Assembly (NCBI GenBank): GCA_016218965.1
Contig: JACRCP010000396.1
Span: 1 to 48,103 of the forward strand
Length of the DNA: 48,103 bases
Source of the DNA: Deltaproteobacteria bacterium
GTDB lineage: Bacteria; Myxococcota; SpSt-1050; JACRCP01
Reading direction: 5' to 3'
Shown piece after piece: positions 12,079 through 41,071 of the stretch; the stretch's first letter is position 1; every line of letters begins with the position of its first letter. Under the pieces are notes generated by a model. It searched no databases and had not been told where the DNA came from. It saw only the letters and a list, made by a program, of their open reading frames with translations. Both the position numbers and the translations under genes were made by a program.

Positions 12079-12132
12079 ACCTATAATTCGGATACTAAAC
12101 CGGCAGAGGTGCCCGTGGCAACCGAACTCAGC

Positions 12133-17958: not shown

Positions 17959-18891
17959 TCAACGTCTCTTCGTCGCCAGGTACACTTTTCCGTTCGGCGC
18001 GTCTTTGAGGTTTTCGGTGAAAACGATCTGCGGCAGGCCGCTCGATGTCACTGTGAGCGACGGGGTGTCCTCATCCATGTCGGGTGTGGCGGTCACTATC
18101 TCCTCGGTTTCAAAAGCGCCGCCGTTGCCTCGGATGTAGAGAACGTCACTCATCGAGTCAAAGAATCGCTTGAACGCGATGTGAACTCCTGCCACGGGAT
18201 CACCGGCGACTCCGAGGTAGTACGTCCGGTCGTCGGTCGACGTCGAGATCGCCTGCACTCCTTTCCACGCGCCGGCCTCGAGCCGATTGTACGTGAGCGT
18301 CTTGTGGTCCCAGTCCGCGCCATCTGCGTACGCGAGGTGCACGACCCCGGCCCCGTCGAGCCCGATCGCCGGCGACCAGACATCCCGGTCGAGTGCGGTG
18401 AGCCCCTTCTCCGCGTCCCAACCAGCGGCGGTCCTCTTCCGGCGGTACAGGACGTTGTTGAAGTCGCTGCTCCCGGGCTTGCTGTAGACCGCGTGGACAT
18501 TCCCCGCGTTGTCGACGGCGAGGTCGTAGTCGGGGGAGAGCGAGAACGGTGCGGTCATGTCGGCGACCGTCTCGGCAACCGACGGCGCACCGTTCTTTGT
18601 CGAGAGATAACTGTCCGCAGACGCATCAACGGCACTGGTATCAGGCGACTCCCCCGCATCCTCGCCGGTGTCGGGAACAATCCCGGCGTCGGTGCCGACG
18701 TCCCCTGTCCAGGCATCTGCTCCGGCATCTTCGATTGCGCCGGTGTCTACGATTGGCCCTGAATCCCCGCCCGGGGCCGCACCGTCCCCGGCGGCGCCCT
18801 GCCCCGCCTCGTCGGAGCTGCAGGCGGAAACGGCCATGAGGAAGGTGAACACCGAAATGAACAAAATCGCGAGCAATCGACGGGTTTTCAT
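17959..18891 (-). CDS. Lipoprotein (lipobox LMAVSAC) with a DAG/DTG-rich linker, unknown function
   Basis: ATG at 18891 with GAGGGGAG RBS. Signal plus lipobox, an Asp/Gly-rich linker and a ~200-aa C-terminal domain. Confidence 0.65.
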   Translation of the reverse strand: MKTRRLLAILFISVFTFLMAVSACSSDEAGQGAAGDGAAPGGDSGPIVDTGAIEDAGADAWTGDVGTDAGIVPDTGEDAGESPDTSAVDASADSYLSTKNGAPSVAETVADMTAPFSLSPDYDLAVDNAGNVHAVYSKPGSSDFNNVLYRRKRTAAGWDAEKGLTALDRDVWSPAIGLDGAGVVHLAYADGADWDHKTLTYNRLEAGAWKGVQAISTSTDDRTYYLGVAGDPVAGVHIAFKRFFDSMSDVLYIRGNGGAFETEEIVTATPDMDEDTPSLTVTSSGLPQIVFTENLKDAPNGKVYLATKRR

Positions 18892-19043
18892 GAACTTCTC
18901 CCCTCAGGCGACCGGGCTCGTCACCCTATACAACGGACGTGGCACGAACGCAACGCGGCCTACACAGTTCGATTCCTCACTTTCTCCATGCTATACTTTG
19001 AATGAGAATCTGGCTAATGAACGCCGTTCGCGGGAGTTTGATC

Positions 19044-19271
19044 ATGGACAAGGTCTTGGCAATAAAAGAAATCGAGGCGCGGTACAAATCCGAGTGGGTC
19101 CTGGTGGAAGACCCGACGACGGACGAGACCCTGGAGATCCGGAGCGGAAAAGTCGTGTGTCACAGCAAGGACCGTGACGAGGTCTACCGAGTGGCCGCAT
19201 CGCGAAAACCCAGAAACTTCGCCGTTCTGTACACCGGCCGGATGCCGAAGGACGCGGCGATCATCCTGTGA
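19044..19271 (+). CDS. Small protein upstream of a retropepsin-like gene (possible DUF5678-like partner)
   Basis: Internal ATG at 19044 with GGGAG upstream. 75 aa. The stop overlaps the next gene's GTG start (GTGA). Confidence 0.45.
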   Translation: MDKVLAIKEIEARYKSEWVLVEDPTTDETLEIRSGKVVCHSKDRDEVYRVAASRKPRNFAVLYTGRMPKDAAIIL

Positions 19272-19651
19272 TCCACCGGTTCAAAGCCAAACAGGGCCTT
19301 GTCGTCGTTCGGGCGGAACTGACCGGCCCGACTGGGAAAGCCTCCTTGCGGCTGGCACTCGACACGGGGGCGACGAACACCCTGATCAATGTCGGCATGC
19401 TTGTCGCGATCGGCTGCGATCCGGCGACCTCCAGGGAACGCGTCGAGGTGACCACAGGGAGCGGGGTGGAGTTTGCACCTCGGGTTGGGCTGAAAAGACT
19501 GTTCGTCCTCGGCTCAGAGAGACGTTCATTCCGCGTACTGGCGCATACCCTGCCGCCGAGCGCAGGTGTGGACGGGCTTCTGGGATTGGATTTCTTCCGA
19601 GACCGGAAGCTGGGGATCGACTTCCGGAAAGGCCAAATCACCGTCGCCTGA
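19268..19651 (+). CDS. Bacterial retropepsin-like aspartic protease
   Basis: LALDTGATNTLI (D-T/S-G-A catalytic motif) within a ~125-aa protein. Confidence 0.7.
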   Translation: MIHRFKAKQGLVVVRAELTGPTGKASLRLALDTGATNTLINVGMLVAIGCDPATSRERVEVTTGSGVEFAPRVGLKRLFVLGSERRSFRVLAHTLPPSAGVDGLLGLDFFRDRKLGIDFRKGQITVA

Positions 19652-19706
19652 CGCCGGCGGATTGCCGTCACCTCCCGTGCAAGGACACTGCGCAGCCGAG
19701 GCGTAC

Positions 19707-20141
19707 ATGCCCAACAACGAAAACAGGCCACCGGACTGGAAAACTTTCCTCACCACATGGAAGAACCTTTCAATCATTTTCGCATGGATACTGGGGGCGA
19801 TATTGGTCATCGGGATAATACTGATCGCACTGGATTATCTCCGTATCATCGGCCCGGCTGGACACGGTGTCCTGATTCCAGCCGCACTGTTCGTGTGGGT
19901 GTTTCTGTTCTGGGTTTTTCTGACGTTGGTGATGGTGACTTTGGTATTGTTGAGAAAAGGGCCGGCACGGAGCGAGTACCGCAACCGTTGTCTCGAGACC
20001 GATGGCCCCCGCTCGCGCAAACCTTGGGCCAAGGTCCTTACGTTGGTGGAGACGCCGAACGGAGTGCAAACGCGCACGGACAAGCAGGGCTTGTCCGTGG
20101 CACCCTCGGATTGGAACGGGCGGGTTCCGCACCCGCGATGA
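19707..20141 (+). CDS. Hypothetical membrane protein (3 TM helices)
   Basis: Internal ATG at 19707. Strongly hydrophobic core FAWILGAILVIGIILIALDYL...FVWVFLFWVFLTLVMVTLVLL. Confidence 0.45.
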   Translation: MPNNENRPPDWKTFLTTWKNLSIIFAWILGAILVIGIILIALDYLRIIGPAGHGVLIPAALFVWVFLFWVFLTLVMVTLVLLRKGPARSEYRNRCLETDGPRSRKPWAKVLTLVETPNGVQTRTDKQGLSVAPSDWNGRVPHPR

Positions 20142-20176
20142 ACGCGGGTGCTTCAGCCACCCCTACAGCGTCCCGC

Positions 20177-22060
20177 CTACTTGCAGCACTTCTCTATCAG
20201 GTCCGGCGGCTGGACGCCGTATTCGCAGGCGCAGCAGACGTCCTTGCACTCGGGCGGCGTGCAGCAATTGTCTATGATCGCCGGGTCCACGGTGCCGCAG
20301 TCCGGTTTCGGCGCACAGCACTTCTCGTTCACCTCGGGCGGCAGCACGCCGTAGTCGCACTCGCAGCAGACGTCTTCGCAGCTGACGCAGCACTCGGCGA
20401 ACTGCTCGGGCGTCACCGAACCGCAATCCGGCGGCTCCACTCCGTAGTCGAGCGTGATGCAGCATTGCGACGCCACGGTGCAGTCGACCGGTTCCTTGGG
20501 GCAGCATTCGTCTATCACAGCCGGATCGACCTTGTCGCAATCCGGGGGAGGGATGCCGTACTCGGGGGCGGCGCAGCACTGCTCGTAGACATCCGGGGGG
20601 ATCACGCCGTAGTCGCACTCGCAGCACACGTCGCCGCAGTTGATGCCGGCGTCCGGCGCGGGACCGGCGTCCTCGCCGATGACTCCGCCGTCCGGCGGCT
20701 CGACACCGTACTCCGGCTGGATGGCACAGCACTCTTCGTAAACGTCCGGCGGGATCACGCCGTATTCGCACTCGCAACAGACGTCCTTGCAGTTCGTTCC
20801 TCCGCCGTCCGGAGCGGGACCGGCGTCCTGTCCCACGGCGGCGTCCCCGGAAACGCCCCCGTCCTCGGCCGGGCCTCCCGAGTCCTCCACCACGGCACCC
20901 GCATCCCCGGAAGTGACCGCGACGTCGCACCCGCCGACTACCAGCGAAAACGCCGACGCAGCCGCGGCCATGTGCCGCGCCACGCGCCTAAGCGGCCGCT
21001 GGCGGACAAGCTCCGAGACCCTGTAGTAGCAGTAGGGGTCCTCGAAGACCGACGGTCCCATTGCCGCGGCCACGCATTTCGCGCCGCCCCGGCAGAGTTT
21101 TGCGTACCGGCAGGTCTTGCAGAATCCCGTGAGGTCGGCGGCCCGGAAGAGCCGGTTGTACGAAAATGCCGCCGGGTCGTTCCAGATGTCAGATAGCGCC
21201 CTCTCGCGGACGTTCCCTTCGACAAACGGGTCGCGATCGCGGTCCGAGAACGCCTGCATCGAGAGGCAGCCCTTGATGTTTCCGTTCGACTCGATCCCGA
21301 TCGCCTGGAGCCCTGCCTGGCACCCGCCCCAGCGCTGGGGTTTCCCGTCCCACGACATGGCCCGCAGGCGCGAGTCGTACGGCCCGTAGAAACCGATCGA
21401 ATCGCCAATGTGGACTCGAATCCCGCCCTTCGATTCGAGCCGGTAGAGGCGCGGGAGCAGATCAAGAAGGTCCTCGGGCTCGAGCACCCAGTCATCCCGA
21501 TCCTTCAAGTTCCCCATGGATTTGCCGAGCTGGACGCGCCACGACGCGGCGCCGAGCTTCTCGGCCATGCCGCAGGTCTCTTCGAGGTGCGCAAGGTTGA
21601 GCTTGTTGGCCGTGGTCATGATGGCCGTCGAGACGCCCGCGTCGGCAAGGAATGAGAGGGCGCGCACGGTCTTCGCGAACGTCCCCCTGCCGCGGATCTT
21701 CTCGTGCACCGCCTCGGGGCCATCGATGCTCACCGCGGCGTTGGCGAGCCCCGCGTCCTTCATTCGGCGTGCAAGCTCCGCCGTCATGGAGTTCCCATTG
21801 GTCACGATGTTGGCGATCATCCCGCGGTCGCGGATGGCTTTCGCCACGACCTCCCAGTCGGGCCGAAGTGTCGGCTCGCCGCCCGATAGCGTGATGAGCC
21901 TGCCCCCGAGCCTCGCGAGCGAGCCAACGACGCCAAGGCACTCGGCGGTGTCCATCTCGTCGGGCCGGGCCGTACCCGCCCGCGAGCCGCAGTGCCCGCA
22001 CCGCAGATCGCACGCCAGTGTGAACTCCCACACGCAGTTGACCGGCTTGAACTCAGGCAT
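20177..22060 (-). CDS. Radical SAM/SPASM-domain enzyme fused in frame to a signal-peptide-like hydrophobic segment and five tandem Cys-rich repeats
   Basis: ATG at 22060 with GGAGGG RBS (longer ORF to 22123). CDLRCGHC CxxxCxxC, SGGEPT, and a SPASM-like CKTCRYAKLCRGGAKC cluster. This is followed by RRVARHMAAAASAFSLVVGGCDVAV (signal/lipobox-like), then a Gly/Asp linker and repeats of C-x-DVCCEC-x-YGV-x-PPD-x3-CC. There is no stop between the domains in the sequence as given. Confidence 0.8.
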   Translation of the reverse strand: MPEFKPVNCVWEFTLACDLRCGHCGSRAGTARPDEMDTAECLGVVGSLARLGGRLITLSGGEPTLRPDWEVVAKAIRDRGMIANIVTNGNSMTAELARRMKDAGLANAAVSIDGPEAVHEKIRGRGTFAKTVRALSFLADAGVSTAIMTTANKLNLAHLEETCGMAEKLGAASWRVQLGKSMGNLKDRDDWVLEPEDLLDLLPRLYRLESKGGIRVHIGDSIGFYGPYDSRLRAMSWDGKPQRWGGCQAGLQAIGIESNGNIKGCLSMQAFSDRDRDPFVEGNVRERALSDIWNDPAAFSYNRLFRAADLTGFCKTCRYAKLCRGGAKCVAAAMGPSVFEDPYCYYRVSELVRQRPLRRVARHMAAAASAFSLVVGGCDVAVTSGDAGAVVEDSGGPAEDGGVSGDAAVGQDAGPAPDGGGTNCKDVCCECEYGVIPPDVYEECCAIQPEYGVEPPDGGVIGEDAGPAPDAGINCGDVCCECDYGVIPPDVYEQCCAAPEYGIPPPDCDKVDPAVIDECCPKEPVDCTVASQCCITLDYGVEPPDCGSVTPEQFAECCVSCEDVCCECDYGVLPPEVNEKCCAPKPDCGTVDPAIIDNCCTPPECKDVCCACEYGVQPPDLIEKCCK

Positions 22061-22232
22061 GACACCCTCCAGCGTTTGCTTTCGCGCCATTATACACTGA
22101 TGCCCCGAAAAACGGACAAACAACTTTCAAATCCGATGCCACGCGCAACATGCTGAAATGACTGCCCGTATTGGTCCCGGCACCGTTCAGAATTCCGACC
22201 GAAAGCGAATTTCCGGCGCCTATGGCCCGAGG

Positions 22233-23897
22233 TCACTTCCGGATCACGACCCAGAGCACTTGATCGTCCGTCCCCGGTTTGTCGATGGAGCGTTTTGCGC
22301 CGCCGGACACCTCGACGGGCGGCCCGGGTTTCCCGGTTTTTGGGTCGAAGAAACGCGCGTCGAAGGCGCCGGGCGCGTCGGAGAGATCGAGAGTGACGGA
22401 CTTCTGGGACTCGACATAGACGATGTACATGCGGCCGCGCTCGCAAAGCGCCGGGAGACCCGCCGCCACGGCTGCGTCTGGGCGCATCGCCTCGATGTTG
22501 AGCGAAGGATCGTCTAGGACCTTCGTGATGTGCCCCAGCCGGTCGAGCGCCGCATCGCGCTCCGCCGCTTTCGACGCGATGGCCGCCTTGGTGTCGAACC
22601 CGAACGACGCGTCGTTCTGCAACACGAAACCGGCACCGCCGAGCGCCGTGCCCCACGCCATCCGCATGAGGGCGTCCAGCCGGTCGGCCTCGCCCCTGAA
22701 CTCGGGGACCGGCTCGCTGAAGAAACAAGGCTTGGGCGGGGTCTTCCCGAACGCCGCAACATAGTGGTCAAAGAAGTCCCGCGCCGGCGGCATGGCGTCC
22801 CACCGCGGCGAGTGGTTGGTGATGACGTCGCACTCGGGATTGCCCTGGTAGTCGCCCGCGAGCACGTGGTCGTCGTTTACCGCGGTGATCGCGTCCGTCC
22901 GCTTCCTGAAGAACGACAGGAAGTGCGTCTGGTGCTTCAGGAGGTTGCCCTGGTCGTACCACTCGCCCTCGTTGAACATCTCGAACATCACGTTGTCGAA
23001 GCCCTTGAGCGTGTCAATCATGCGTTCGCAGAAGCGTTCCTGGAAGAACTGGTTCTTTTTTTGCCATCGCCACGAGGGGTCGAACGCGGCCGGGGCCTCG
23101 GCCCCGTAGTCGTCGAGCTCCACGTACCCGGCCTTGTCGGCAAGCGGCCCGCCGAGCGCGGAGTTGAACGGGTGACCGTCGAACCGCCACTTCACGCCGC
23201 CGTCGTGCACCGTGATCAGGACGACCATGTCCCTTGCGCGGGCCGCGCGGACGAACTCGCCAAGCTGTTCGAAATACACGGGGTTGAGGCTGTTCAAGTC
23301 GAACTTCCCCGGCCCACCGTTCCAGGGCCAGAACTCCGGCGCGTCGTAGCCGATCCGCTCGTCGTCCCTCTGGTCGGTGATCCCGATGTACGACCAGATC
23401 ATCACCACGTTGAGCCCCCTGCTCGAGAGCGCGTCGAGGTATTCCACGTAGTTGAAGTCGGCGCCCAGCTCCATCCAACCCTGCGTCAGCGAGTCGCCGA
23501 CAAGAATGACCGGTTTCCCGTCGAGCCGGAGGTAGTACCCCGAAGGCCCGACGGAAAGGCCCGGCAACACGCCACCGTCCGTCCCGCCCGCGTCGGCGCC
23601 GGCGTCCTGAGGGGCGGCAACATCGGACGGATCAGACCGATCGGACAGATCGGACACGCCGGGCAGATCGGACGCGTCTTCCGTCCCGTCGTCAATCGTC
23701 CCTTCGTCCTTCGTCCCGCTGTCCGCAAAGGCGCCAGCGTCCCGGCCCGACGGGCCGCCGTCCTTAGCCGATCCGGTCCCGGCGCCTTTCGGACCCCCGC
23801 CCCCGCCCTCCGTAGTGACCCCGCCGCCGCACGCCGCAAGGAACATCGTCGCGGCTGCAAACGAAACGGCAAGAGGGATCGTTCTCAACCGCATCAT
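22233..23897 (-). CDS. Lipoprotein, putative TIM-barrel glycoside hydrolase (clan GH-A/DUF4038-like)
   Basis: Internal start MMRLRTIPLAVSFAAATMFLAAC, then a Gly-rich/SD linker. The catalytic domain has FEMFNEGEW (NEx acid/base-like) and a conserved aromatic-rich TIM-barrel pattern. The family assignment is tentative. Confidence 0.7.
   Translation of the reverse strand: MMRLRTIPLAVSFAAATMFLAACGGGVTTEGGGGGPKGAGTGSAKDGGPSGRDAGAFADSGTKDEGTIDDGTEDASDLPGVSDLSDRSDPSDVAAPQDAGADAGGTDGGVLPGLSVGPSGYYLRLDGKPVILVGDSLTQGWMELGADFNYVEYLDALSSRGLNVVMIWSYIGITDQRDDERIGYDAPEFWPWNGGPGKFDLNSLNPVYFEQLGEFVRAARARDMVVLITVHDGGVKWRFDGHPFNSALGGPLADKAGYVELDDYGAEAPAAFDPSWRWQKKNQFFQERFCERMIDTLKGFDNVMFEMFNEGEWYDQGNLLKHQTHFLSFFRKRTDAITAVNDDHVLAGDYQGNPECDVITNHSPRWDAMPPARDFFDHYVAAFGKTPPKPCFFSEPVPEFRGEADRLDALMRMAWGTALGGAGFVLQNDASFGFDTKAAIASKAAERDAALDRLGHITKVLDDPSLNIEAMRPDAAVAAGLPALCERGRMYIVYVESQKSVTLDLSDAPGAFDARFFDPKTGKPGPPVEVSGGAKRSIDKPGTDDQVLWVVIRK
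23625..23680. repeat. TCGGAC-type SD-repeat tract
   Basis: tcggacagatcggacacgccgggcagatcggacgcgtc encodes DASDLPGVSDLSDRSDPSD on the minus strand. Confidence 0.5.
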
Positions 23898-23934
23898 CGA
23901 AGACCTCCTCATTGACCGAATCCCCCGCGAACTC

Positions 23935-25653
23935 TCAACGCACCGCCGAGCACGAACAGCCGGACGATTCGTCATTCCCCGAGCCGACGTCGGGTGCTTC
24001 GCCCGATCCCTGATCCTCCACCGCTCCCCCACCGCCGTCGGCCGGGGCCGGGACATCCGGGCCCCCGTTGTCGGCCGCGACCTGAGCATCGGCCTCGGAA
24101 CCGGAATCCGGCGCCGCCCCGTCAACCGGGGGTCCGGCATCGTCGAACCCGGCATCGGGCGCAGGACCGGCGTCCGGGACACCCGAATCCGCCGCGCCGG
24201 TATCGACCGGTCCCGCATCCAAACCGGCGCCGGAGTCGAATGTTCCGGCGTCCGCCGTTCCGGTGTCGGGCTGCCCCGCGTCGGGGATCTGCGTCGTCAC
24301 CGAAATGTCCCGCGAGAGCGTCTGCCCGAACCAGGCGACGCCGTCATGGACCATTCGGGCGCTGAAACGGGCCGTGCCTGGCGAGGCGGGCGCCACAAGG
24401 TCGAAGGTGAACTTGTTCGTCTGCCCCGGCGCCACCGGTGCCGCCATGTAGAGCCTCTGATCGGCCGCCGAGTTGTGGTACCCGCCGGCTGTGCCGTTGG
24501 CCCACATGACGGTGTTGTCCTGGACGGATCCCAGCCGTGTCCCCCCGATGTGGTCTTGCGGCTCCTGCCACGCGACCGTCCCCGTGTTCTTCATCGCGAC
24601 CTCGACGCGAACAGTCGAGCCCGGCGTCATGTACACGGGAATGGTGTGCGATTCCACGGCTGCGTCTTCGGTCTGCGACCCCATGTACTCGGCGAAGAAC
24701 GCCTGCCAGTCCCCCGCGTGGACGTAGAGCACCTCGGTCGCCGAGAGCGTCTGGCCGTTTGTGAACACCGGCGGGTGGTACGATCCGTCTATCGGCTCGC
24801 GGTCCCGGTTGACGAAGAAGAACTCGATCGTGCGCACCGGGTCTATCACCTCGACGTTGCGCCAGAAGTTGAACGTGGCGACCTGGGACGAACTCACCAC
24901 GCGCCCGATCCCGCCGTTGGGTCCCCAGATGTCGTACCACGAGTTCTGGAGCCCGCTCTGTCCGACCCCGGGGACGACCATGATCCCGCTGTTTGCCTGC
25001 CCCGGCCGCCGATCGGGAATAGGCCCGGCGGTCACTCCGGACGCCGTGTGATGTTCCCACGAGTTGCAGCAGCCGTACCACCATTCCCGCGTATCCCACG
25101 CGAAGTTGAGCAGCCCCGCGTCCACGCCCAGAACGTCCACGGGGCACGAGAGCATCATGACGCGGTGCTCGTCGAGACCTATTGCGTCCATCTCGGCCGT
25201 GTCGACCGTGATGAGGTGGCTCACGGCGATGCGTGACGAGTCCTTCTCGAACGTGTATGTGCGCGAGAAGCGCAGGCCCACCGACCTCCGCGCGGCCTCG
25301 GTGAGTCTGAGAGCCCCGGAAAAAGCGATCACGAGCCGGGAGGCCGTGTTTTCCTGGATTGTGACCTGCGCATTCTGCTCCCACGACTGGTCGAATGTGT
25401 TGTTCCCGACCCCGTCGCCGCCGTACAGGCTCCCGAGATAGTGGTAGCCGTCCCCCGCCAGAAACTGCACCCCGGCCCCCTTCCGCCACAGTTCGACCAT
25501 TGCCCCGCCCATGGCCGAATCCATGACCGCCTTGATCTTCGCGTCATCCCAGACGTGCCGCGTACCGGATTTCGAGTAACCGGAATGCGCGTAGCCGCCC
25601 TGAACACAGAAGACAGCCAGGGCCGTGATGCCTGCCGCAACCCCTCTGGACAT
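23935..25653 (-). CDS. Secreted protein of unknown function with a C-terminal DAG/DTG repeat region ending ...SSGCSCSAVR
   Basis: ATG at 25653 with AAGGGAG RBS. Signal peptide MSRGVAAGITALAVFCVQGGYA. The SD repeats in the 5' extension of the ORF are the shadow of the opposite-strand gene and are excluded. Confidence 0.65.
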   Translation of the reverse strand: MSRGVAAGITALAVFCVQGGYAHSGYSKSGTRHVWDDAKIKAVMDSAMGGAMVELWRKGAGVQFLAGDGYHYLGSLYGGDGVGNNTFDQSWEQNAQVTIQENTASRLVIAFSGALRLTEAARRSVGLRFSRTYTFEKDSSRIAVSHLITVDTAEMDAIGLDEHRVMMLSCPVDVLGVDAGLLNFAWDTREWWYGCCNSWEHHTASGVTAGPIPDRRPGQANSGIMVVPGVGQSGLQNSWYDIWGPNGGIGRVVSSSQVATFNFWRNVEVIDPVRTIEFFFVNRDREPIDGSYHPPVFTNGQTLSATEVLYVHAGDWQAFFAEYMGSQTEDAAVESHTIPVYMTPGSTVRVEVAMKNTGTVAWQEPQDHIGGTRLGSVQDNTVMWANGTAGGYHNSAADQRLYMAAPVAPGQTNKFTFDLVAPASPGTARFSARMVHDGVAWFGQTLSRDISVTTQIPDAGQPDTGTADAGTFDSGAGLDAGPVDTGAADSGVPDAGPAPDAGFDDAGPPVDGAAPDSGSEADAQVAADNGGPDVPAPADGGGGAVEDQGSGEAPDVGSGNDESSGCSCSAVR

Positions 25654-25747
25654 TGGCAACTCCCTTCCCGGTTCGGGCTCAAGGGTCCGGCGATCATTGT
25701 ACAGTACCCCGCGATGTGCTTCAATGTGTGACCAGAGGTCCACCTGC
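25654..25747. promoter_or_regulatory. Divergent intergenic region with a conserved ~45-bp block (CATTGTACA...CGCGATGTGCTTCAATGTG) duplicated at 30024-30111
   Basis: Sequence identity to the second copy is seen directly. Promoter function is an inference from its position between divergent start codons. Confidence 0.4.
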
Positions 25748-27067
25748 ATGAAAGCCACCGCATTTGTCGGCGTGACGTTCTGCCTTGCGGCCCTTGCCTG
25801 CGGCGAGGGCGTGACTGAAAACAGAGCGGACGCGCCGGCGGGTCGCGACGCGGGCGGCGGGCGGGACGAGGAGACGAGGGACGAAGGGACGACGGACGCG
25901 GGCGCGCAGGACGCGTCGGAACCGTCCGACCGGTCCGACACGTCCGACAGGTCTGACCTGTCCGATGTGGGTGGGTTTGACGCGTCCGATGCGTCCGATC
26001 TGTCCGATCGGTCCGATCCGTCCGACGTTGCAACACCGCAGGACGCCGGCACCGACGCGGGGCCGCCGCTTCACTATCCCGGGAAGACATGGGACGAAAA
26101 GGACCCCGGCGAGGCAGGGCTGGACAGCGCCAGGCTCGACTCGTACAAGGGCTCCGTTCTCGGCAGGGGCTGCGTGACGCGGGGCGGGTACATGGTGTAC
26201 ACGTGGGGCGATCAGGCCGCCAGGGGCGACGTCGCGTCCGCCTGCAAGCCTTTCTTCAGCCACTTCCTGTTCACGGCGGTCGAGGAGGGGCTGCTGGAGA
26301 ACATTGACGTACCGGCGAGGCAGTTCGAGCCGAGGCTCGACGCTATCAACAAGGACCTGGGCTACAAGGACCGCGGGATACTCTTCCGCCACTTTGCCAC
26401 GCAGACATCGTGCTACGGCGTCACCGAGTCCCCCGGAACCGCCTTCGACTACAACGACTTCCAGATGGCCCTGTTTTTCGACACGCTGTTTCTCAAGGTG
26501 TACGGAAAAACCTACGACAACCTGGACGCCGACGTGTTCAGGGCACGCCTGTGCGACGTCATCGAGTGCGAGGACAGTCCCACCTTCTTTGCCTTCGGGA
26601 AGAACGACCGCCCCGGGAGAACCGCGATCTCGGTCCGTGACTTCGCGCGCTTCGGCCTGCTGTACATGCGCGGGGGGCGATGGAACGACCGTGAACTGAT
26701 CCCGGCCGACGTCGTGCTCGCCGCAACGACCAGCCCTCTGCCGAACGCGATCCCGAGGACAAACGGCGTCGAAGCCGAGATGATCGCCGGACAAAGGTCC
26801 CTGGGCTCGAACACGATCCCCGACAACCAGACCGACCACTACGGGAGCTACAGCTACCTGTGGTGGACAAACGGCGTGGATCGGGACGGGAACCGGCAGT
26901 GGCCCGACGCGCCGCTCGACACCTACGGCGCTTTCGGACACGGCGGGAAGCGTGCGATGGTGGTGATTCCCAGCCTGGATATCGTGACGAGTTGGAACGA
27001 CTCCGGCATCGACACGCCGGAGAAGGCAAATGAGGCGCTGAAAAGGCTCGTCGCGTCGGTGCAATGA
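25748..27067 (+). CDS. Lipoprotein, beta-lactamase/transpeptidase-fold serine hydrolase (class C / family VIII esterase-like)
   Basis: MKATAFVGVTFCLAALAC lipobox, an SD-repeat linker, and a catalytic domain with the S-x-x-K motif (ASACKPF) and a later Tyr/HGG region. Confidence 0.75.
   Translation: MKATAFVGVTFCLAALACGEGVTENRADAPAGRDAGGGRDEETRDEGTTDAGAQDASEPSDRSDTSDRSDLSDVGGFDASDASDLSDRSDPSDVATPQDAGTDAGPPLHYPGKTWDEKDPGEAGLDSARLDSYKGSVLGRGCVTRGGYMVYTWGDQAARGDVASACKPFFSHFLFTAVEEGLLENIDVPARQFEPRLDAINKDLGYKDRGILFRHFATQTSCYGVTESPGTAFDYNDFQMALFFDTLFLKVYGKTYDNLDADVFRARLCDVIECEDSPTFFAFGKNDRPGRTAISVRDFARFGLLYMRGGRWNDRELIPADVVLAATTSPLPNAIPRTNGVEAEMIAGQRSLGSNTIPDNQTDHYGSYSYLWWTNGVDRDGNRQWPDAPLDTYGAFGHGGKRAMVVIPSLDIVTSWNDSGIDTPEKANEALKRLVASVQ
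25915..26030. repeat. SD-repeat tract (D-x-S-D)n
   Basis: ccgtccgaccggtccgacacgtccgacaggtctgacctgtccgatgtg...gcgtccgatgcgtccgatctgtccgatcggtccgatccgtccgac, about 90% identical to 30283-30396. Confidence 0.6.
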
Positions 27068-28563
27068 TGGGCATCAGCAAAACCATTCCCGGGCTTGCAC
27101 TCGTGTTCCTGTTGCCCTCTGCGCCGGCGTGCTGGGTGGCCGGTTGCAGCTCAGGCACGGAAGAGGACCGGGCCGGAGACTCCGGAAACCCGAAGGTCAT
27201 GGACACCGAAGACTTCGACGCGGAAAGCGATTCGGACTCACATCCGGACGGGGGGGCGGACGCGGGGACGTCCCATGATGCGGGATTGCAGGACGGCGCG
27301 GGCGCTTCCGATACGGGGAATCTCGAGGATTCCGGGCGAGAGGATGCGCGCGTCGACGCCGGCTCGTACGACGCCGGTTCGGAAACGCCGGACGCGGGCT
27401 CCCGCTCCGGACCGCTTGTCCCCGACCCCGCGAACGCACGCTGGCTCAAATGGAAGAACGGCCCGCACACGTTCATATGCGGCCCCGGGGACCCCGAAGG
27501 CTTCCTGTACCGCGGCGCCCGTCTTGCCGACGGGACGCGCGACGGCGACCAGGACGAGATCATCTCGAAGCTTGCGGGGACGGGCGCCAACGGGATCTAT
27601 TTCCAGGCTGTGAGGTCCCACGGGGGCGACGGAGATTCAACGCACAACCCGTTTGTGGACGGCGACCCCGCCAAGGGATTGAGTGACCCGATCCTCGACC
27701 AGTGGGAGCGGTGGTTTGAGGCCCTCGACGAGGCGGGCGTCGCGATGTTCTTCTTCGTCTACGACGACAGCGCACGAATCTGGGACACCGGCGGCGCAAG
27801 CGGCGCCGATGAACGGGCCTTCGTTCAGGGCCTCGTGGGACGCTTCAGCCATCATCGCGGGATTGTGTGGGTCGTTGCGGAGGAGTACGCCGAGAGATAC
27901 GCGCCCGCGAGGGTATCGGCGATTGCGGCCGCCATCCGCGCCGCCGACGCAATGCACCCGATAGGCGTGCACAAGAACCACGGTCTGGACTTCTCCGAGT
28001 TCGCGACCGACCCCGGCATCGATGTCTTCGCCATCCAGTACAACGTGGACACAGCCGGCGAGCTTCACGCCGGAATGCAGAGTGCCTGGGACACCGCAGC
28101 GGGGAGGTACAACCTCACGATGTCCGAGGCCGCAAATCACGGCTCGGGGGACTCGGCGCGGAGGAAGAACTGGGCCGCCGCCCTGGGCGGCGCCTACGTG
28201 CTCGTGCTCGGAATGGACGTGGCCTCCACGCCTGTCTCCGACCTGGAGGACTGCGGGAGGCTGGCGCGCTTCATGGAATCGGCCGGTTTCGCCTCGATGT
28301 CGCCCCACGACGAGCTGTCGTTTGGCGCGACGGAATACGTGATGGCGGACCCCGGGCGGGACTACATCGTCTACGCGGCGGGAAATGGCGACCCCGGCCT
28401 GCGCGGGCTGGACGCGGGAACCTATCTCCTGCGCTGGCTGGACACCGTCACCGGCACGGAAAAGGAGGAGGAGGTCACGACCGCGGCGGGCGACCGCACG
28501 TTCACCCGCCCCGGCGGGCTGGGAACCGAGGTCGCATTGCACATCCGGCACCTGCCCGAGTGA
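27064..28563 (+). CDS. Lipoprotein, putative TIM-barrel glycoside hydrolase-like protein
   Basis: ATGA overlap with the upstream gene. Lipobox LLPSAPAC, a DAG-rich linker, and a core similar in layout to the 22233-23897 product (FFFVYDD, VVAEEYAERY). Confidence 0.7.
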   Translation: MMGISKTIPGLALVFLLPSAPACWVAGCSSGTEEDRAGDSGNPKVMDTEDFDAESDSDSHPDGGADAGTSHDAGLQDGAGASDTGNLEDSGREDARVDAGSYDAGSETPDAGSRSGPLVPDPANARWLKWKNGPHTFICGPGDPEGFLYRGARLADGTRDGDQDEIISKLAGTGANGIYFQAVRSHGGDGDSTHNPFVDGDPAKGLSDPILDQWERWFEALDEAGVAMFFFVYDDSARIWDTGGASGADERAFVQGLVGRFSHHRGIVWVVAEEYAERYAPARVSAIAAAIRAADAMHPIGVHKNHGLDFSEFATDPGIDVFAIQYNVDTAGELHAGMQSAWDTAAGRYNLTMSEAANHGSGDSARRKNWAAALGGAYVLVLGMDVASTPVSDLEDCGRLARFMESAGFASMSPHDELSFGATEYVMADPGRDYIVYAAGNGDPGLRGLDAGTYLLRWLDTVTGTEKEEEVTTAAGDRTFTRPGGLGTEVALHIRHLPE

Positions 28564-28577
28564 CCCGGCCGGGCAGT

Positions 28578-30023
28578 TCAGAATACGTAGTTGCAGGCCT
28601 TCAGGTTGCGGAAGACGGCCCCAGTTTCGTCGCCGCCGGCGCTTTCGCTCCCGAACCAGAGATAAGGGTCCGTACCGAGGGTGATGCCGCCGTACCCCTC
28701 GCTCCCCCACTCGACTCCATCCACCAGCAGGCGCACCTCGGCGCCGTCCCAGGTCACCTTGAGCTTGTGCCACTGTCCGTCGGACTGGTCCGGCAGCCGC
28801 TTCGTATCCATGCAGCAGAAGGCGCCCGCGAGGATCACACGTAGGTTCCCGCGCGGCTGCCCGCAGTCCGAGGCCATGTTGGCGAGCACCATCCTTGCCT
28901 TCTGGGGGTTCTCGCCCTCGTGGATGTTCAGGTTGAAGACGAACCGCTCGCACCCGTGGGTCCCCGACTCGAAGGGGATGATCCTTAGCAGGTCCTTTGC
29001 CTCAAACTCCATGGCGCCCTTGTCAAAGACTCCCGAAAGCGTCCGCTCGATGCGGTCCCCCGTACCGTCCACGGCGTAGCCCCCGTCTCGGAAGCTGCCG
29101 CCCTTGAACCTGAAGCCGGCGGCCTCGACCTCCTGCTGGCTCGACAGGGACGAGGAGTAACACACCTGATCGGGCTGGCACACGCCGCCCTCGTCGATCT
29201 GGTTGTTGCAGTCGTTGTCCTTGCCGTCACACACCTCCGGTTCGGGCGTGCACTGGACCGTGCCGGAGGTAATGGTGATGAAGTTCAATGCCGTGTCTTC
29301 GGTCCCGTCGCCCGCCCGGAGCGTCAGCCGGCCGTCCGTCACGGTGACAGGCAGGTCGTTGACGCGTATGAACTGACCCGCCGCCGACATGACGGAGTCG
29401 ACGGCAACCACTCCCTCGATTTCGATGCGGTTGGGCCCCTGCTCGAACTCGTCACCGCTGGCCAGCGAAACCTTGTAGTCACCGTTGGGAACCACGATCT
29501 CCCACATGTCCACAACGCCAATGCCCCCGGGGAACATTACCGTGTCCAGGATCGGGTCGCCCGTGACGTTCCGTTTTCGGGTCGCCGAGGTCAGGTCGCG
29601 GGACCACCCGCGCCCGCGTCCGTTGTCAAATGTCGAGCCGTCGTCGTGCTGCCACCCAGCGGGCGGCGAAAACCCCGGCGGCCCGAAGTTGATCTTGAGA
29701 TCGACGGGCTGCTGGGTGCCCGCATCTGTTCCCACGTCCGCCGCAACAGCGCCTCCATCATCGGTTCCCGAGTCCGCCACATCCCCCGAATCGGGTGCGC
29801 CTGCCTCCGGCGTTCCTCCCGCATCGTCTGGTGCCTGTGCGTCATCCGGGGCGCCCGTGTCCTGGTGCGCCTGGCCGGTGTCATTCTGCCCGCCGCCGCC
29901 ATCCCCCGAACCGCCCGTGTCAGGGGCAACAACACCTTTGTCGGACAACGCCCCGTTGTCCCCCGTGTCGTAGCAGGCGTAAAGCGCCAACATGCACGCG
30001 ACGGCCGCAACCCATCTGGTCAT
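28578..30023 (-). CDS. Lipoprotein with a malectin-like carbohydrate-binding region, a MopE-type CxDxxDxDCxxxxDE Cys motif and a ConA/LamG-like C-terminal domain
   Basis: ATG at 30023 with GGAGG RBS. Lipobox MLALYAC, motif CDGKDNDCNNQIDEGGVC, and C-terminus ...FRNLKACNYVF. Confidence 0.7.
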   Translation of the reverse strand: MTRWVAAVACMLALYACYDTGDNGALSDKGVVAPDTGGSGDGGGGQNDTGQAHQDTGAPDDAQAPDDAGGTPEAGAPDSGDVADSGTDDGGAVAADVGTDAGTQQPVDLKINFGPPGFSPPAGWQHDDGSTFDNGRGRGWSRDLTSATRKRNVTGDPILDTVMFPGGIGVVDMWEIVVPNGDYKVSLASGDEFEQGPNRIEIEGVVAVDSVMSAAGQFIRVNDLPVTVTDGRLTLRAGDGTEDTALNFITITSGTVQCTPEPEVCDGKDNDCNNQIDEGGVCQPDQVCYSSSLSSQQEVEAAGFRFKGGSFRDGGYAVDGTGDRIERTLSGVFDKGAMEFEAKDLLRIIPFESGTHGCERFVFNLNIHEGENPQKARMVLANMASDCGQPRGNLRVILAGAFCCMDTKRLPDQSDGQWHKLKVTWDGAEVRLLVDGVEWGSEGYGGITLGTDPYLWFGSESAGGDETGAVFRNLKACNYVF

Positions 30024-30111
30024 TGGCAACCTCCGCTCGAAACTCTCGAAACTCTCGCCATTGTACATGACCTCGCGATGTGCTTCAATGTGCGCCGAAA
30101 GGACCAAACGC
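30024..30111. promoter_or_regulatory. Second copy of the conserved divergent intergenic block
   Basis: CATTGTACATGACCTCGCGATGTGCTTCAATGTGCGCC matches 25690-25735. It is flanked by the conserved starts CATTGGCAAC (minus strand) and CATGAAAGCCACCGCAT (plus strand). Confidence 0.4.
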
Positions 30112-31875
30112 ATGAAAGCCACCGCATGTGTCGGCGTGATGTCGTGCCTTGCGGCCCTTGCCTGCGGCGGGGGCGTGACGGAAAACGGAGCGGACGTGCC
30201 GGTCGGGCGCGACGCGGGCGGCGGAGGGGACGAAGGGCCGACGGACGCCGGGACGATGGACGCGGGCGCAGAGGACGCGTCCGAGCCGTCCGACCGGTCC
30301 GACATGTCCGACAGGTCAAACATGTCCGATGCGGGCGGGTTTGACGCGTCCGATGCGTCCGATCCGTCCGATCGGTCCGATCCGTCCGATGTTGCCACGC
30401 CGCAGGACTCCGGCGCCGACGCGGGCGGTGGAGGGGACGAGGGGACGACGGACGCGGGTACAGACACGGGCGTGCAAGCCGACAGCGGGGCCGATACGGG
30501 GGTTGCAGATACGGGGGTTCCGGACGCCGGCAACGGTTGTGTCCCGGTGGACGTCCCCCCGAAGGTCGAAGATTCGACGCTCCCCGGCGAGAATCCGCCG
30601 GGGAAATCCGAGGCGCGCCTTCAGGGCTCGTTCCACGACGAGTACCTCTACGACTCGACGAACTACATCAAGATCGGCGTGCGGCGCGAGTGGGGCGGCT
30701 CGGTGATCTTCTTCGGCCTCGTCTCGGGCGGAGCGGGGATGAATGGAACCAACACCATAGACGCCAACGACACCGGCCGCGAGGTGCAGGTGGCGTTCTA
30801 CGACCCCGACCGGGCGATGCAGAACTGCGCGTGGAACGCCTCGTGCCGGACCGTCCCGACATCGTGCGCGCAGTCGATCACTTTCTTGGGCTGGGACCCG
30901 GTTCAGGGCGGGAACCGCTGCAACAACGGCTCGGGAGTCGACTCGGTGGCGAACGCAAACGGACTCCTGTCAGTCGTCACCACGCCGCTTTTCTGGAACC
31001 CCGACTGGGACCGCCAGGACTGCAACTCGGGCGGCTGCAGCGACCCGCAGAAGAAGTACCGCAAATCCGACGTGCAGGTGACGCAGCGGTTGAGGTTCGT
31101 CCGGACGCACGTTGTCGAGATCGACTACACCATTTCCAACCTCGCCGACTTCGACCACGCCGAGACCGCTCAGGAGATGCCCACGCTTTACTCGGCCAAC
31201 GGCGAAAACGGCCCCGACCTCTGGAAACTCGTGGACTCGAACGGCACGGAGGTCCCGATAGATCAGCCCGCGGGCGGCGACGGCTTCAACTACAAGAACC
31301 TCACCAGCCCAGGCGGCTGGGTGACCATGCAGAACACGGCCGAAGACTACGGAGTGGGGATCTACTACGAGAACCGTCTGTCGTCGTTCCAGGGCTGGCA
31401 GCTCCGCTCGCTCCCGTTCAACAACGTGCGCGCGATCTTCCCGTTCGCCATTCCCCCGCACGCATCGGTTCGCGCAAGGGCGTATCTCATCGTCGGCGGC
31501 TACGGCACGGTTTCGGCCGAGGCGGCCTGGCTCGACGCACACCTCGCGCCGTTCGGCTCGCTCGACGTCCCCTCGGCCGATGCGACGGTTTCGGGAGCGG
31601 TGGAGATCTCGGGCTGGGCGCTCGACAACAAGGACGTCACGTCAGTTGAACTGCTGGTAGACGGAAAACCGGCGGGCGCAATGACGTATGGCTCTGCACG
31701 CCCGGACGTCTGCAAGGTCTGGCCGCAGTACAGAAAATGCCCAAACGTGGGATACGGCGGGACGCTCGACACATCTTCGCTTTCGGCGTGCCAGCACCTC
31801 GTCGAGGCTGTCGCAGAAGATGCCGACGGGAACTCGCGCGTGATAGACCGGAAGAGATTCAGCGTTTCGAGGTGA
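30112..31875 (+). CDS. Lipoprotein of unknown function with an SD-repeat linker and a C-terminal Ig-like domain
   Basis: MKATACVGVMSCLAALAC lipobox. The N-terminal ~110 aa are a near-duplicate of the 25748 gene, and the rest is unrelated. Confidence 0.7.
   Translation: MKATACVGVMSCLAALACGGGVTENGADVPVGRDAGGGGDEGPTDAGTMDAGAEDASEPSDRSDMSDRSNMSDAGGFDASDASDPSDRSDPSDVATPQDSGADAGGGGDEGTTDAGTDTGVQADSGADTGVADTGVPDAGNGCVPVDVPPKVEDSTLPGENPPGKSEARLQGSFHDEYLYDSTNYIKIGVRREWGGSVIFFGLVSGGAGMNGTNTIDANDTGREVQVAFYDPDRAMQNCAWNASCRTVPTSCAQSITFLGWDPVQGGNRCNNGSGVDSVANANGLLSVVTTPLFWNPDWDRQDCNSGGCSDPQKKYRKSDVQVTQRLRFVRTHVVEIDYTISNLADFDHAETAQEMPTLYSANGENGPDLWKLVDSNGTEVPIDQPAGGDGFNYKNLTSPGGWVTMQNTAEDYGVGIYYENRLSSFQGWQLRSLPFNNVRAIFPFAIPPHASVRARAYLIVGGYGTVSAEAAWLDAHLAPFGSLDVPSADATVSGAVEISGWALDNKDVTSVELLVDGKPAGAMTYGSARPDVCKVWPQYRKCPNVGYGGTLDTSSLSACQHLVEAVAEDADGNSRVIDRKRFSVSR
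30283..30396. repeat. SD-repeat tract (D-x-S-D)n, paralogous to 25915-26030
   Basis: Direct comparison of the two tracts in sequence. Confidence 0.6.
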
Positions 31876-31893
31876 ACCGGAAAGGGGTGGCAC

Positions 31894-33093
31894 ATGGATT
31901 CCCGCGGAGTCGGGTACTGGTCCCTGCGGATCGTCCTCTTCTCCTTCTTCTCCCTGCTCACCGTTCCTTCGCCGCCCGCCCGCGCCGCCGGCGAGGAGTT
32001 CACGGTGCCGAAAGAGGAACCGAACACCGTGTTCACCCGCCGCTGGAACTGGGCCCACCCGCGCCCCGAGTACTACAGCACCACGCGCCACGGCGACTCG
32101 GGCGAGCCCAGGCTCGACGAAACGCGCGACCCCGACCAGAGCGCGCCGTACCTCTACATGGGATCGGCGACCGCCGTCTTCAACAACCTCCCTCCCGGCA
32201 AGTACGAGCTCTGGGTCTTCTACCGCAAGTCCACCAACCGTTCGCGAAACGTCCCGTGGAAGGTCACGACCGACGCGGCCACGAACAATACGGCAGGGGG
32301 AATCATTGACCAGTACGAGGACGTGGCGTGCTGCGGCGAGTGGTACCTCATCCCGGAAACGAGGAGCAATCCGATAGGCGTCCAGAGCTCGTTCACGCTC
32401 AAGTGGAGCGCCGACAAGGGCGATTTCCCGGAATACGACGGCCGCTCGGTCGCGTACGGCGGCGCCAGGGTCAGGCGTGTATCCGACGACCCCACCCCGC
32501 TCGACGGAGGCGTCGCCGACACCGGCGGCCCGGCCGGGACGTGCGCCGCCATCCGATCGACGCCGGGATTCGAGCTGTGTGTGGAAACCGAGACAACCTG
32601 CGCGGGGGTGTTCACCAACGGCGCGGGCTGCGCCGCGTATTGCGCAACGGCGAACATGGTTTGCACGGAAGCGTTCGGCGCCTCGCCGGGCTGCAACAAG
32701 GAGCTTGAGAACCCGCTTGAGTGCGCCGCGACCGAGGGCCACAACTCCGACTGGTGCGAGTGCGCGTATCCGCCGGGGTACGACGGAGGAACGAAGGACG
32801 GGGGGACGACGGACGAAGGGACGCCGGACGCGCCTGACGCGTCCGACATGTCCGACACGTCCGACCCGCCCGACGCTTTCGACGCGGGAACTTTCGACGT
32901 CACCGGCCTGTCTGACCTTTCAAGCGCGCCCGATGCGGCGGCATCCGACCGGTCCGAGCCGTCAGATCTGTCCGATCTGTCGGATGCCGCGCGCCAGCCG
33001 CCGGACGCTGGCGCGGCTGGCGGCGACGCCGGCGCCGAGCCGTTCGAGTACGACGCGTTGGGCTGCGGGTGCGTAACCGTGAGAATGAACTGA
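31894..33093 (+). CDS. Secreted protein of unknown function with a C-terminal SD-repeat region ending ...ALGCGCVTVRMN
   Basis: Signal peptide MDSRGVGYWSLRIVLFSFFSLLTVPSPPARAAG, with AAGGGG upstream. Cys-rich mid region (CAGVFTNGAGCAAYCATANMVCTEAFGASPGC). Confidence 0.65.
   Translation: MDSRGVGYWSLRIVLFSFFSLLTVPSPPARAAGEEFTVPKEEPNTVFTRRWNWAHPRPEYYSTTRHGDSGEPRLDETRDPDQSAPYLYMGSATAVFNNLPPGKYELWVFYRKSTNRSRNVPWKVTTDAATNNTAGGIIDQYEDVACCGEWYLIPETRSNPIGVQSSFTLKWSADKGDFPEYDGRSVAYGGARVRRVSDDPTPLDGGVADTGGPAGTCAAIRSTPGFELCVETETTCAGVFTNGAGCAAYCATANMVCTEAFGASPGCNKELENPLECAATEGHNSDWCECAYPPGYDGGTKDGGTTDEGTPDAPDASDMSDTSDPPDAFDAGTFDVTGLSDLSSAPDAAASDRSEPSDLSDLSDAARQPPDAGAAGGDAGAEPFEYDALGCGCVTVRMN
32838..33000. 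repeat. SD-repeat tract at the 3' end of the 31894 gene
   Basis: gcgtccgacatgtccgacacgtccgacccgcccgac...gaccggtccgagccgtcagatctgtccgatctgtcggat. Confidence 0.55.
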
Positions 33094-33115
33094 TGCGAAA
33101 ACGCGAGGAGGTTCT

Positions 33116-39685: not shown

Positions 39686-39799
39686 GTGTGCGACGCGCGA
39701 CGTCGTCGCGTGGCGCGAAACATCCCCGAGCCTGTCGAAGGGCTAAGGTTCCCGCCAATGCGGGCTGCCGGGTAGATGGATCGAGGATTGGAGGGATCC

Positions 39800-41021: not shown

Positions 41022-41071
41022 ACCCCACCCGACCGGCGTATAATGTGCCTGCACCGGGCAAGGAGGGAAAC

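Follow-up and report, generated by a model that had tools for sequence, protein, structure and literature searches.

How do neighbouring genes for unrelated secreted proteins come to share one divergent regulatory region, one export signal and one surface tether? The question is raised by contig JACRCP010000396.1, the complete 48,103-bp contig (hereafter the window; GC content ~65%) of a metagenome-assembled genome (MAG) deposited at NCBI for an uncultured "Deltaproteobacteria bacterium". Two divergent gene pairs lie on it: A- (23935..25653, minus strand) with A+ (25748..27067, plus strand; HY897_24615 at NCBI), and C- (28578..30023, minus strand) with C+ (30112..31875, plus strand; HY897_24630). 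We found that a segment of ~425 bp, hereafter the cassette, is present in both pairs as direct copies in the same orientation, ~4.4 kb apart (25634-26059 and 30004-30423). As proposed in an initial annotation of this DNA, one and the same segment contains the divergent regulatory region, both gene starts, a lipoprotein signal peptide and a Ser-Asp (SD) repeat linker, and is joined to bodies that are unrelated. The explanation that we favour, and consider moderately probable, is that one chromosome region of the MAG underwent a single partial duplication, by which the 5' ends of one gene pair were replaced.

The duplication is real, but the limits initially assigned to its copies (25560-26040 and 29950-30400) had to be corrected to those given above. 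MAFFT alignment and an offset identity scan resolve each copy into two conserved blocks separated by an island. The right block (25695-26059 vs 30059-30423, offset 4364) aligns without gaps over 365 nt with 47 differences (87% identity), and a repeat finder reports a 300-nt family, D2, at 86%; outside the right block, identity falls on both sides to 25-35%, the random level. The left block (25634-25660 vs 30004-30030, offset 4370; minus strand) has a chance expectation of 0.00 and spans, in both minus-strand genes, the bases proximal to the ribosome-binding site (RBS), the start codon and the coding sequence up to codon 7 or 8, that is, ATG 25653-25651 and MSRGVAAG of A- in copy 1, and ATG 30023-30021 and MTRWVAAV of C- in copy 2. 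The conservation of this start context, already pointed out in the initial annotation, amounts to 25/27 positions. In the island between the blocks (25661..25694 in copy 1 and 30031..30058 in copy 2, minus strand; 34 and 28 nt, respectively), no homology is detectable, the global alignment score lying below the shuffle mean. In copy 1, the island covers most of the predicted 5' untranslated region (UTR) of A- and contains a small predicted hairpin, and in copy 2 it covers the predicted 5' UTR of C- and contains a 9-nt tandem repeat (CTCGAAACT x2.4).

The right block begins with an intergenic core block (CATTGTACAGTACCCCGCGATGTGCTTCAATGTG in copy 1; 25695..25728 and 30059..30092, both strands), which occurs exactly twice in the window (chance expectation 0.00). 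It is conserved at 31/34 positions, as had been noticed, but it is 34 nt rather than ~45 bp long. In copy 1, it is followed by the predicted 5' UTR of A+ (25729..25747, plus strand), with a Shine-Dalgarno sequence, AGAGG, read at 25734-25738, and in both copies the block ends with codons 1-104 of the plus-strand gene (25748..26059 in A+, 30112..30423 in C+). The shared start of the plus-strand genes, originally put at ~330 nt, is thus confirmed with a length of 312 nt. The similarity is not confined to the SD repeat: the intergenic block and the left block are conserved, as are the signal-peptide codons, at 55/60 nt. A Logan contig of SRR12113407 corresponds to window positions 22954-30389 with 1 mismatch in 7436 nt and holds copy 1 and most of copy 2; as this second assembly reproduces both copies, the repeat is not an assembly artefact. 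The Logan contig ends at window position 30389, inside the SD-repeat array of copy 2, and short-read assemblers evidently break at this repeat.

The coding part of the cassette differs between the copies at 36/312 nt and 21/104 residues. It starts with a signal peptide (MKATAFVGVTFCLAALA in A+ and MKATACVGVMSCLAALA in C+), which is identical at 15/18 residues through the lipobox cysteine (Cys18; codon 25799-25801 in A+), compared with 83/104 residues for the cassette as a whole. Lipoboxes were recognized with a PROSITE PS51257-type regular expression, [LIVMFWSTAG](2)-[LIVMFYSTAGCQ]-[AGS]-C, within approximately the first 35 residues, together with a positively charged n-region and a hydrophobic core. 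On this basis, lipoprotein signal peptides are predicted for A+ (MKATAFVGVTFCLAALAC), C+ and C- (LALYAC), whereas the corresponding segment of A- (ALAVFC) does not match the expression, and A- is more likely a substrate of signal peptidase I. Downstream of Cys18, both plus-strand proteins continue into an acidic linker with an xSD array (25916-26026 in copy 1 and 30280-30390 in copy 2, plus strand), which is strand-symmetric, as stated in the initial annotation, in that its reverse complement also reads xSD. Arrays of this kind, with a 9-nt period, are found in four genes of the window (7591-7744, 25890-26043, 30254-30407 and 32807-32993). They are built on the quasi-palindrome GTCCGAC/GTCGGAC, such that the opposite strand encodes xSD and long open reading frames (ORFs) stay open (23935-26052 and 28578-30533), which can mislead gene callers, and they may also offer a substrate for recombination or inversion. 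The two long minus-strand ORFs through the cassette were rejected as real genes, given that their openness comes from the strand-symmetric repeat; the plus frame is preferred because of its signal peptide, its higher GC content at third codon positions (0.79 for the coding part of copy 1 in the A+ frame) and its homologue-supported gene model.

The bodies behind this shared leader are unrelated: a BLASTP comparison of the A+ and C+ bodies yields E > 3, and the minus-strand genes match each other only in low-complexity linkers of similar, Asp/Gly/Pro-rich composition. A- encodes a secreted protein of 572 aa that contains an N_BRCA1_IG-like Ig domain and ends, after an acidic C-terminal linker, in ...SSGCSCSAVR; the 481-aa product of C- is a lipoprotein that combines an acidic linker with a MopE-like Cys motif and a Laminin_G_3 domain. 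A+ (439 aa) consists of the cassette and, from approximately residue 108 (YPGKTWD), a body assigned to the beta-lactamase (PF00144) family of serine hydrolases. No Pfam match was found for A+ itself even at E <= 1, and the assignment, which agrees with the initial annotation, follows from three lines of evidence. The homologues of A+, which are 60-65% identical and come mostly from Planctomycetota, Armatimonadota and delta-type MAGs, have precomputed PF00144 matches and are annotated as "serine hydrolase" or "beta-lactamase class C family"; the residues S60-A61-x-K63, Y131 and H294-x-G296 are invariant in a 31-sequence alignment of the body family; and a profile search of the PDB gives weak matches to Lsa45 (E = 3.6e-4) and 6-aminohexanoate-dimer hydrolase (E = 3.4e-3). 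Many of the homologues are fused to an apiosidase-like PF13204 domain, forming one polypeptide of ~750 aa in many Planctomycetota and Armatimonadota. Here, that domain is encoded by the downstream gene B (27064..28563, plus strand; 499 aa, an apiosidase-like lipoprotein), the start of which overlaps the stop of A+, and in one relative (a JGI contig, locus L008 4586-7200) genes of the two types are adjacent in the opposite order. Given that the two families are fused or adjacent elsewhere, they form a functional pair, which suggests that A+ and B may constitute a two-enzyme (esterase plus glycosidase) unit.

C+ (587 aa) carries, after the cassette and 37 aa of extra linker, a body of a family that is common in Myxococcota and delta MAGs (60-69% identity). 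An AlphaFold model based on 41 homologues (mean pLDDT 84.6, pTM 0.86) comprises a galactose-mutarotase-like beta-supersandwich of ~340 aa followed by a C-terminal Ig-like domain. Its best match in the PDB is an endo-1,3-fucanase of glycoside hydrolase family 174 (GH174; E = 1e-8, TM 0.45), followed by mutarotases and the YidC periplasmic domain. Accordingly, the initial description of C+ as an Ig-like-domain protein is accurate for its C-terminus, where Pfam detects a Big_7 domain and nothing else, but not for its main body, which is mutarotase-like. The body (30529-31872) belongs to a widespread Myxococcota/delta family of ~440 aa for which, apart from the terminal Big_7, no Pfam model exists, and two low-confidence loops of the model (body residues 68-83 and 99-114) hold invariant Asn, Asp and Cys residues.

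The pattern of divergence between the copies bears on how the cassette came to be shared. The 47 differences of the right block (24 transitions and 23 transversions) are evenly spread, with a longest identical run of 28 nt (P = 0.64) and no unusual dispersion of gaps between differences (P = 0.26), and gene-conversion mosaicism finds no support in view of this uniformity. Over the 104 shared codons, the rates of nonsynonymous (dN) and synonymous (dS) substitution are 0.10 and 0.20, respectively; the resulting dN/dS of ~0.5 indicates what would be weak constraint on the cassette, as expected for a signal peptide and a disordered tether. In the core block, conservation does not exceed that of the coding cassette (Fisher p = 0.78), and special conservation of these 34 nt was rejected. 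The noncoding flanks have changed most: the 19-nt 5' UTR on the plus strand differs at 8/19 positions, significantly more than the rest of the cassette (p = 0.001), and the UTR on the minus strand has been replaced outright. Collectively, these patterns indicate a history that would comprise one copying event followed by drift and local UTR remodelling, with neither ongoing conversion nor special selection on the inverted repeat. We also considered a cis-regulatory RNA, such as a riboswitch or leader, and rejected it: there are no Rfam matches across the window and no significant folds of the UTRs (z-scores from -0.85 to +1.19), the hairpin of copy 1 appearing in both the minimum free energy and the centroid folds with a z-score that is not significant.

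What, then, does the core block do? A consensus promoter scan identified on its minus strand, in copy 1, TTGAAG (25724-25719) and TACAAT (25701-25696) separated by 17 nt, and in copy 2 the same arrangement (TTGAAG 30088-30083, 17 nt, TACAAT 30065-30060). These sites (25724..25696 and 30088..30060), located 36-43 nt upstream of the minus-strand start codons, are the only two that the scan reports within 18001-38000. On the plus strand of copy 1, TTGTAC (25697-25702) is followed after 17 nt by TGc-TTCAAT (25720-25725), with TGc as an extended -10 element; this candidate was read by eye, matches the consensus at 7/12 positions and falls below the scan threshold. The plus-strand boxes lie 22 nt upstream of the ATG, with the Shine-Dalgarno sequence (AGAGG/AAGGA) in between. 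From position and orientation, the core can be read as a sigma-70-like minus-strand promoter with a weaker plus-strand counterpart, the predicted transcription start sites (TSSs) lying near 25689 (-) and 25732 (+), approximately 43 bp apart. Between the candidate -10 hexamers (minus strand, 25696-25701; plus strand, 25720-25725) there are 18 bp, and each hexamer overlaps the -35 element of the opposite strand. The CATTG...CAATG symmetry of the block is thus best read as two putative hexamer boxes 17 bp apart, the -10 of one strand serving as the -35 of the other. All 3 core-block differences between the copies fall in the spacer, although the number of sites is too small for this to be significant (P = 0.19). 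Elsewhere in the contig, two opposite-strand promoter-like sites, TTGTCT-17-TATAAT (+) and TTGCCA-18-TAGTAT (-), lie within 63 bp at 12059-12121 and represent a second candidate divergent promoter.

Next comes the question of where the copied segment was joined to its new surroundings. The initial annotation suggested recombination at the SD repeats, an idea at odds with the position of the array, which lies inside the cassette. The right breakpoint is located ~30 nt past the array, at a microhomology of CGACGCGGG (Asp-Ala-Gly), and the left breakpoint within the codons for the signal peptides of A- and C-. A repeat in the C+ linker, termed R1' (30417..30461, plus strand; repeat families D7 and D11) matches the cassette-internal segment 30210-30254 at 40/45 positions, and its first 9 nt (CGACGCGGG) are the final bases of the homology between the copies, such that R1' marks the right breakpoint. 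The DAG motif recurs in several linkers of the window (repeat family D7), and in the homologues of A+ the linker often ends in "...DAGP" immediately before the body; hence, the recipient probably offered the same microhomology. In A+, the cassette ends at residue 104 and body homology starts 3-4 residues later, at approximately residue 108, with "(F/Y)PG.TWD". In C+, 37 further linker residues follow the cassette before family homology starts at approximately residue 142 with "C.VP.P.PV..LPGE". Because only the C+ linker continues past the breakpoint with a repeat of a cassette-internal segment, we tentatively take C-/C+ as the original context and A-/A+ as the recipient; R1' matches the C+ segment at 40/45 positions and the corresponding A+ segment at 37/45.

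The sequence of events that we envisage is as follows. A segment of ~425 bp would have been copied once between two divergent exoprotein gene pairs, 4.36 kb apart in the same orientation. It would have contributed the translation start and 7-8 initial codons to the leftward gene, the RBS, start, signal peptide and ~85-aa acidic xSD tether to the rightward gene, and a compact divergent promoter region between them. In the recipient pair, the copy would have taken the place of the native 5' ends without breaking either reading frame, joining on the right at the short CGACGCGGG microhomology (Asp-Ala-Gly codons), of a kind that ends many linkers in this genome, and on the left inside the signal-peptide codons of the leftward gene. 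Since then, the copies would have drifted by ~13% under weak constraint while two 5' UTR stretches were remodelled. As a consequence, A-, A+, C- and C+, along with B and probably gene D downstream of C+ by operon linkage, would share transcription and translation initiation signals, with RNA polymerase binding the same stretch of core DNA in either orientation, and the A+ hydrolase and the C+ beta-sandwich protein would both be exported as lipoproteins on one long acidic tether. Shared export and control of this kind would fit co-regulated surface enzymes that process polysaccharides.

Is the cassette found beyond these two loci? The MKATA...CLAALACG N-terminus is absent from all 238 homologues listed for the A+ and C+ bodies, and each homologue inspected (six for A+, and those of C+ with a complete N-terminus) has a lipobox and acidic linker of its own. 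At the loci of the closest C+ and A+ homologues, there is neither synteny nor a shared upstream region or divergent partner, the contexts being completely different. Core-block patterns have no match in genome and metagenome contigs (TTGTACA-N6-CGCGATGTGCTTCAATG) or viral contigs (CGCGATGTGCTTCAATGTG), and no homologous loci of the core block were found in the genome or metagenome collections; these DNA collections do not include the source MAG, and the negatives are weak for its other contigs. A degenerate search with the back-translated N-terminus gave 59, 92 and 108 pattern matches in the genome, metagenome and viral collections, respectively, none of which was confirmed. An hmmsearch of 1.84 billion protein representatives with a 67-aa N-terminal profile returned one borderline, irrelevant match (E = 9.7e-4), a weak negative because cassette proteins would be hidden behind the cluster representatives of their bodies. 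A word-indexed protein search with the 105-aa cassette peptide retrieved no match, not even the window proteins, probably owing to composition filtering, and is uninformative, and an exact-protein look-up of C+ on other contigs found no record. Taken together, the comparisons show a cassette that appears to be lineage-specific, joined to two body families that normally have other N-termini.

Several features support a single partial duplication: the sharp limits of homology, the ungapped right block, the lack of a mosaic pattern, the unrelated bodies and the presence of R1' at the breakpoint. The resemblance of the C+ body to carbohydrate-active beta-sandwich enzymes further supports the proposed functional context. 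Other observations weigh against this reading. The island of 34/28 nt without homology requires a second, later replacement or indel in one copy, and in-frame junctions on both sides are unlikely for a random illegitimate event unless selection or pre-existing homology helped. The direction of transfer depends on 5 versus 8 mismatches in 45 nt, a difference that is not significant. As for the promoters, that on the plus strand is a weak match (7/12), and the window holds 7 promoter-like sites compared with ~4.8 in shuffled sequences, no clear enrichment, with assignment by consensus only. Finally, one 48-kb contig of the genome was examined, and a count of one event and two copies may be too low.

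That last point leads to the view of the initial annotation, namely, modular shuffling, in which the cassette belongs to a larger family with active exchange, and a portable module of promoter and leader is recombined time and again onto different exoprotein bodies in this lineage. Such a family would be analogous to the upstream-homology-box (erp) genes of Borrelia. The unrelated bodies and the boundary at a linker/domain junction would be expected in this case, the examined DNA is a fraction of the source genome, xSD/DAG linker repeats offering potential microhomology occur in at least four window genes, and the contig contains a second, independent duplication restricted to 5' ends (39790-39929 / 41062-41201, 140 nt, 86%). 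Nevertheless, the genes of that second pair (39800 / 41072) are paralogous throughout, and hence no bodies were swapped. Furthermore, only two copies of the cassette are seen in 48 kb, none turned up in the searched collections, weak as those negatives are, and the uniform differences, which are those expected of a single event, bear no trace of repeated conversion. As a process, shuffling is therefore not borne out, and we regard a larger family as unlikely. Quite unlikely, too, is the more elaborate proposal of a portable two-way expression-and-export module that is repeatedly acquired via DAG/xSD linker microhomology, has more copies elsewhere and possesses a distinct bidirectional geometry with RNA polymerase competition. 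Alternatively, a whole ancestral divergent pair could have been tandemly duplicated as a unit of ~4.4 kb, the bodies being later replaced or diverged and the cassette kept by purifying selection or gene conversion. Direct repeats at a short distance are what tandem duplication leaves behind, and both the dN/dS of ~0.5 and the integrity of the promoter hexamers leave room for some constraint. However, each body falls into a different, well-populated family and shares 60-69% identity with its homologues in other organisms, so that the bodies did not arise by divergence from each other. The scenario also calls for body replacement on four separate occasions, each time with an exact junction, in place of one 425-bp copy event, no residual similarity extends past the sharp limits, and the core block is not conserved above the coding cassette, all of which makes the duplication of a whole pair quite unlikely as well.

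A different cause of the similarity would be a shared regulon, with CATTG-N22-CAATG as the operator of a dimeric transcription factor, in line with the regulator site initially suggested. Both copies have the inverted repeat, which the rest of the window lacks, and all three differences within the block lie between its arms. Yet two matches to CATTG-N15-35-CAATG are reached by 6/100 shuffles, and the two observed matches are not independent. The conservation of the block does not exceed the cassette average, and the arms coincide exactly with the promoter hexamers on the two strands, which explain the symmetry. With 27 bp between their centres, the half-sites would face opposite sides of the helix, an arrangement unusual for a dimer, and we consider an operator very unlikely. 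Hardly any credence can be given to an artefact or a mobile element, be it an assembly chimera, collapsed strain variation or an element inserted twice that resembles an insertion sequence or a miniature inverted-repeat transposable element. The source is a metagenome-assembled genome, and the Logan contig breaks off within the array of copy 2; still, the copies are 87% identical, not identical, and a second assembler reproduces both with a single mismatch in 7.4 kb. No inverted repeat joins the ends 25634 and 26059, which lie in frame inside coding sequence, both junctions keep long ORFs in frame, and there is neither a transposase gene nearby nor a viral match.

The single partial duplication can be compared with known systems. 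In principle, it does not differ from ordinary partial gene duplication or exon-shuffling-like recombination in bacteria, where a segment with sharp limits is copied and fused in frame, here probably via linker microhomology; its content, namely, a two-way promoter, two starts, an export signal and a tether, makes for a tidy case. The closest described analogue is the erp (OspE/F-related) or upstream-homology-box family of Borrelia burgdorferi, in which one promoter, leader and localisation sequence is joined to many unrelated mature parts (PMC10016077). The two systems share conserved upstream DNA (a promoter/operator in erp; the core block with its promoter-like site here), a lipoprotein leader with the first mature residues, and mature parts of independent origin. 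The erp genes are multi-copy, occupy allelic positions on cp32 prophage plasmids, are demonstrably co-expressed and continue to recombine. The cassette has two chromosomal copies within the 48-kb window, with uniform differences, no sign of further exchange and no copy in collections from which the source MAG is absent, and its shared sequence takes in a long acidic tether as well as the 5' end of a second, divergent gene. The vlp, vsp and vsa loci of Mycoplasma likewise combine a conserved 5' region (promoter and prolipoprotein signal peptide) with divergent, repeat-rich mature regions, but they are many-copy systems of phase and antigen variation, operated by homopolymer switches or by site-specific inversion through a dedicated recombinase. 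By contrast, the cassette copies are direct repeats, no recombinase gene lies nearby and the bodies are enzymes instead of repeat antigens; a shufflon based on site-specific inversion is equally inconsistent with the direct orientation, and no recombinase or transposase domain was detected in the genes scanned. With respect to the core block, the bidirectional promoters described by Warman, Grainger and colleagues are pseudo-symmetrical sequences that engage RNA polymerase either way and give rise to divergent transcription; in Escherichia coli, their -10 elements overlap on opposite strands and the TSSs are mostly 18 bp apart, distances of 10 and 23 bp being also common (PMC12825309). The core block is similarly pseudo-symmetrical and could engage RNA polymerase in both orientations, but it does not belong to that class: its candidate -10 elements do not coincide, each box would serve one strand as -35 and the other as -10, and the predicted TSSs are more distant than 10, 18 or 23 bp.

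The surroundings of the cassette copies are consistent with the functional context outlined above. Gene calls for A-, A+, B and C- are identical in the Logan assembly of SRR12113407. Gene D (31894-33093), located downstream of C+, is followed by a gene for an alpha-2-macroglobulin of 2163 aa (33116-39607). Weak GH5/apiosidase matches in 22233-24218 and in gene B suggest that the neighbourhood resembles a cluster of secreted, probably carbohydrate-directed proteins. The C-termini encoded at 23935-23965 (A-) and 33060-33093 (D) are Cys-rich tails behind an acidic linker (...SSGCSCSAVR* and ...LGCGCVTVRMN*), in which the GC(G/S)C motif recalls the MYXO-CTERM sorting signal, without the following hydrophobic helix. 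These tails may represent a short C-terminal processing or anchoring signal.

The second 5'-end duplication of the contig affects two genes (39800-40252 and 41072-41818) for small, Cys-rich proteins and comprises their RBS and ~43 initial codons (MAL..RAKRTIGAFIFSLL.Y.FPSLGGGCNVA.EKDGGAE). Past this shared part, the two proteins, with their repeated YGPPxC..D.DC modules, are only distantly related, and conservation does not extend to the upstream DNA. Directly downstream of this pair lies a radical SAM/SPASM gene (41853-42992); given this adjacency, the Cys-rich proteins might be its leader-bearing substrates. It is one of four radical SAM genes in the contig (with 12339-13976, 13966-15315 and 20177-22123), two of which have SPASM domains. 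A 76-nt repeat family (4 copies, 71-82%; 20181-20799) is located at the 3' end of the radical SAM/SPASM ORF 20177-22123, and its complement is rich in Cys codons.

What we describe is an ordinary partial duplication and, as such, a clear, small-scale case of a known route by which genes gain new 5' ends; with two copies only, it opens no new question. It provides a clean, datable example of a promoter, a translation start, an export signal and a surface tether being gained in one step, with the junction at a low-complexity linker, and acidic repeat linkers of this kind may favour domain recombination. If our reading of the promoters is right, one 425-bp copy event brought four secreted proteins that are unrelated to each other, along with their operon partners, under common control, which would represent a simple route to a co-regulated set of surface enzymes.

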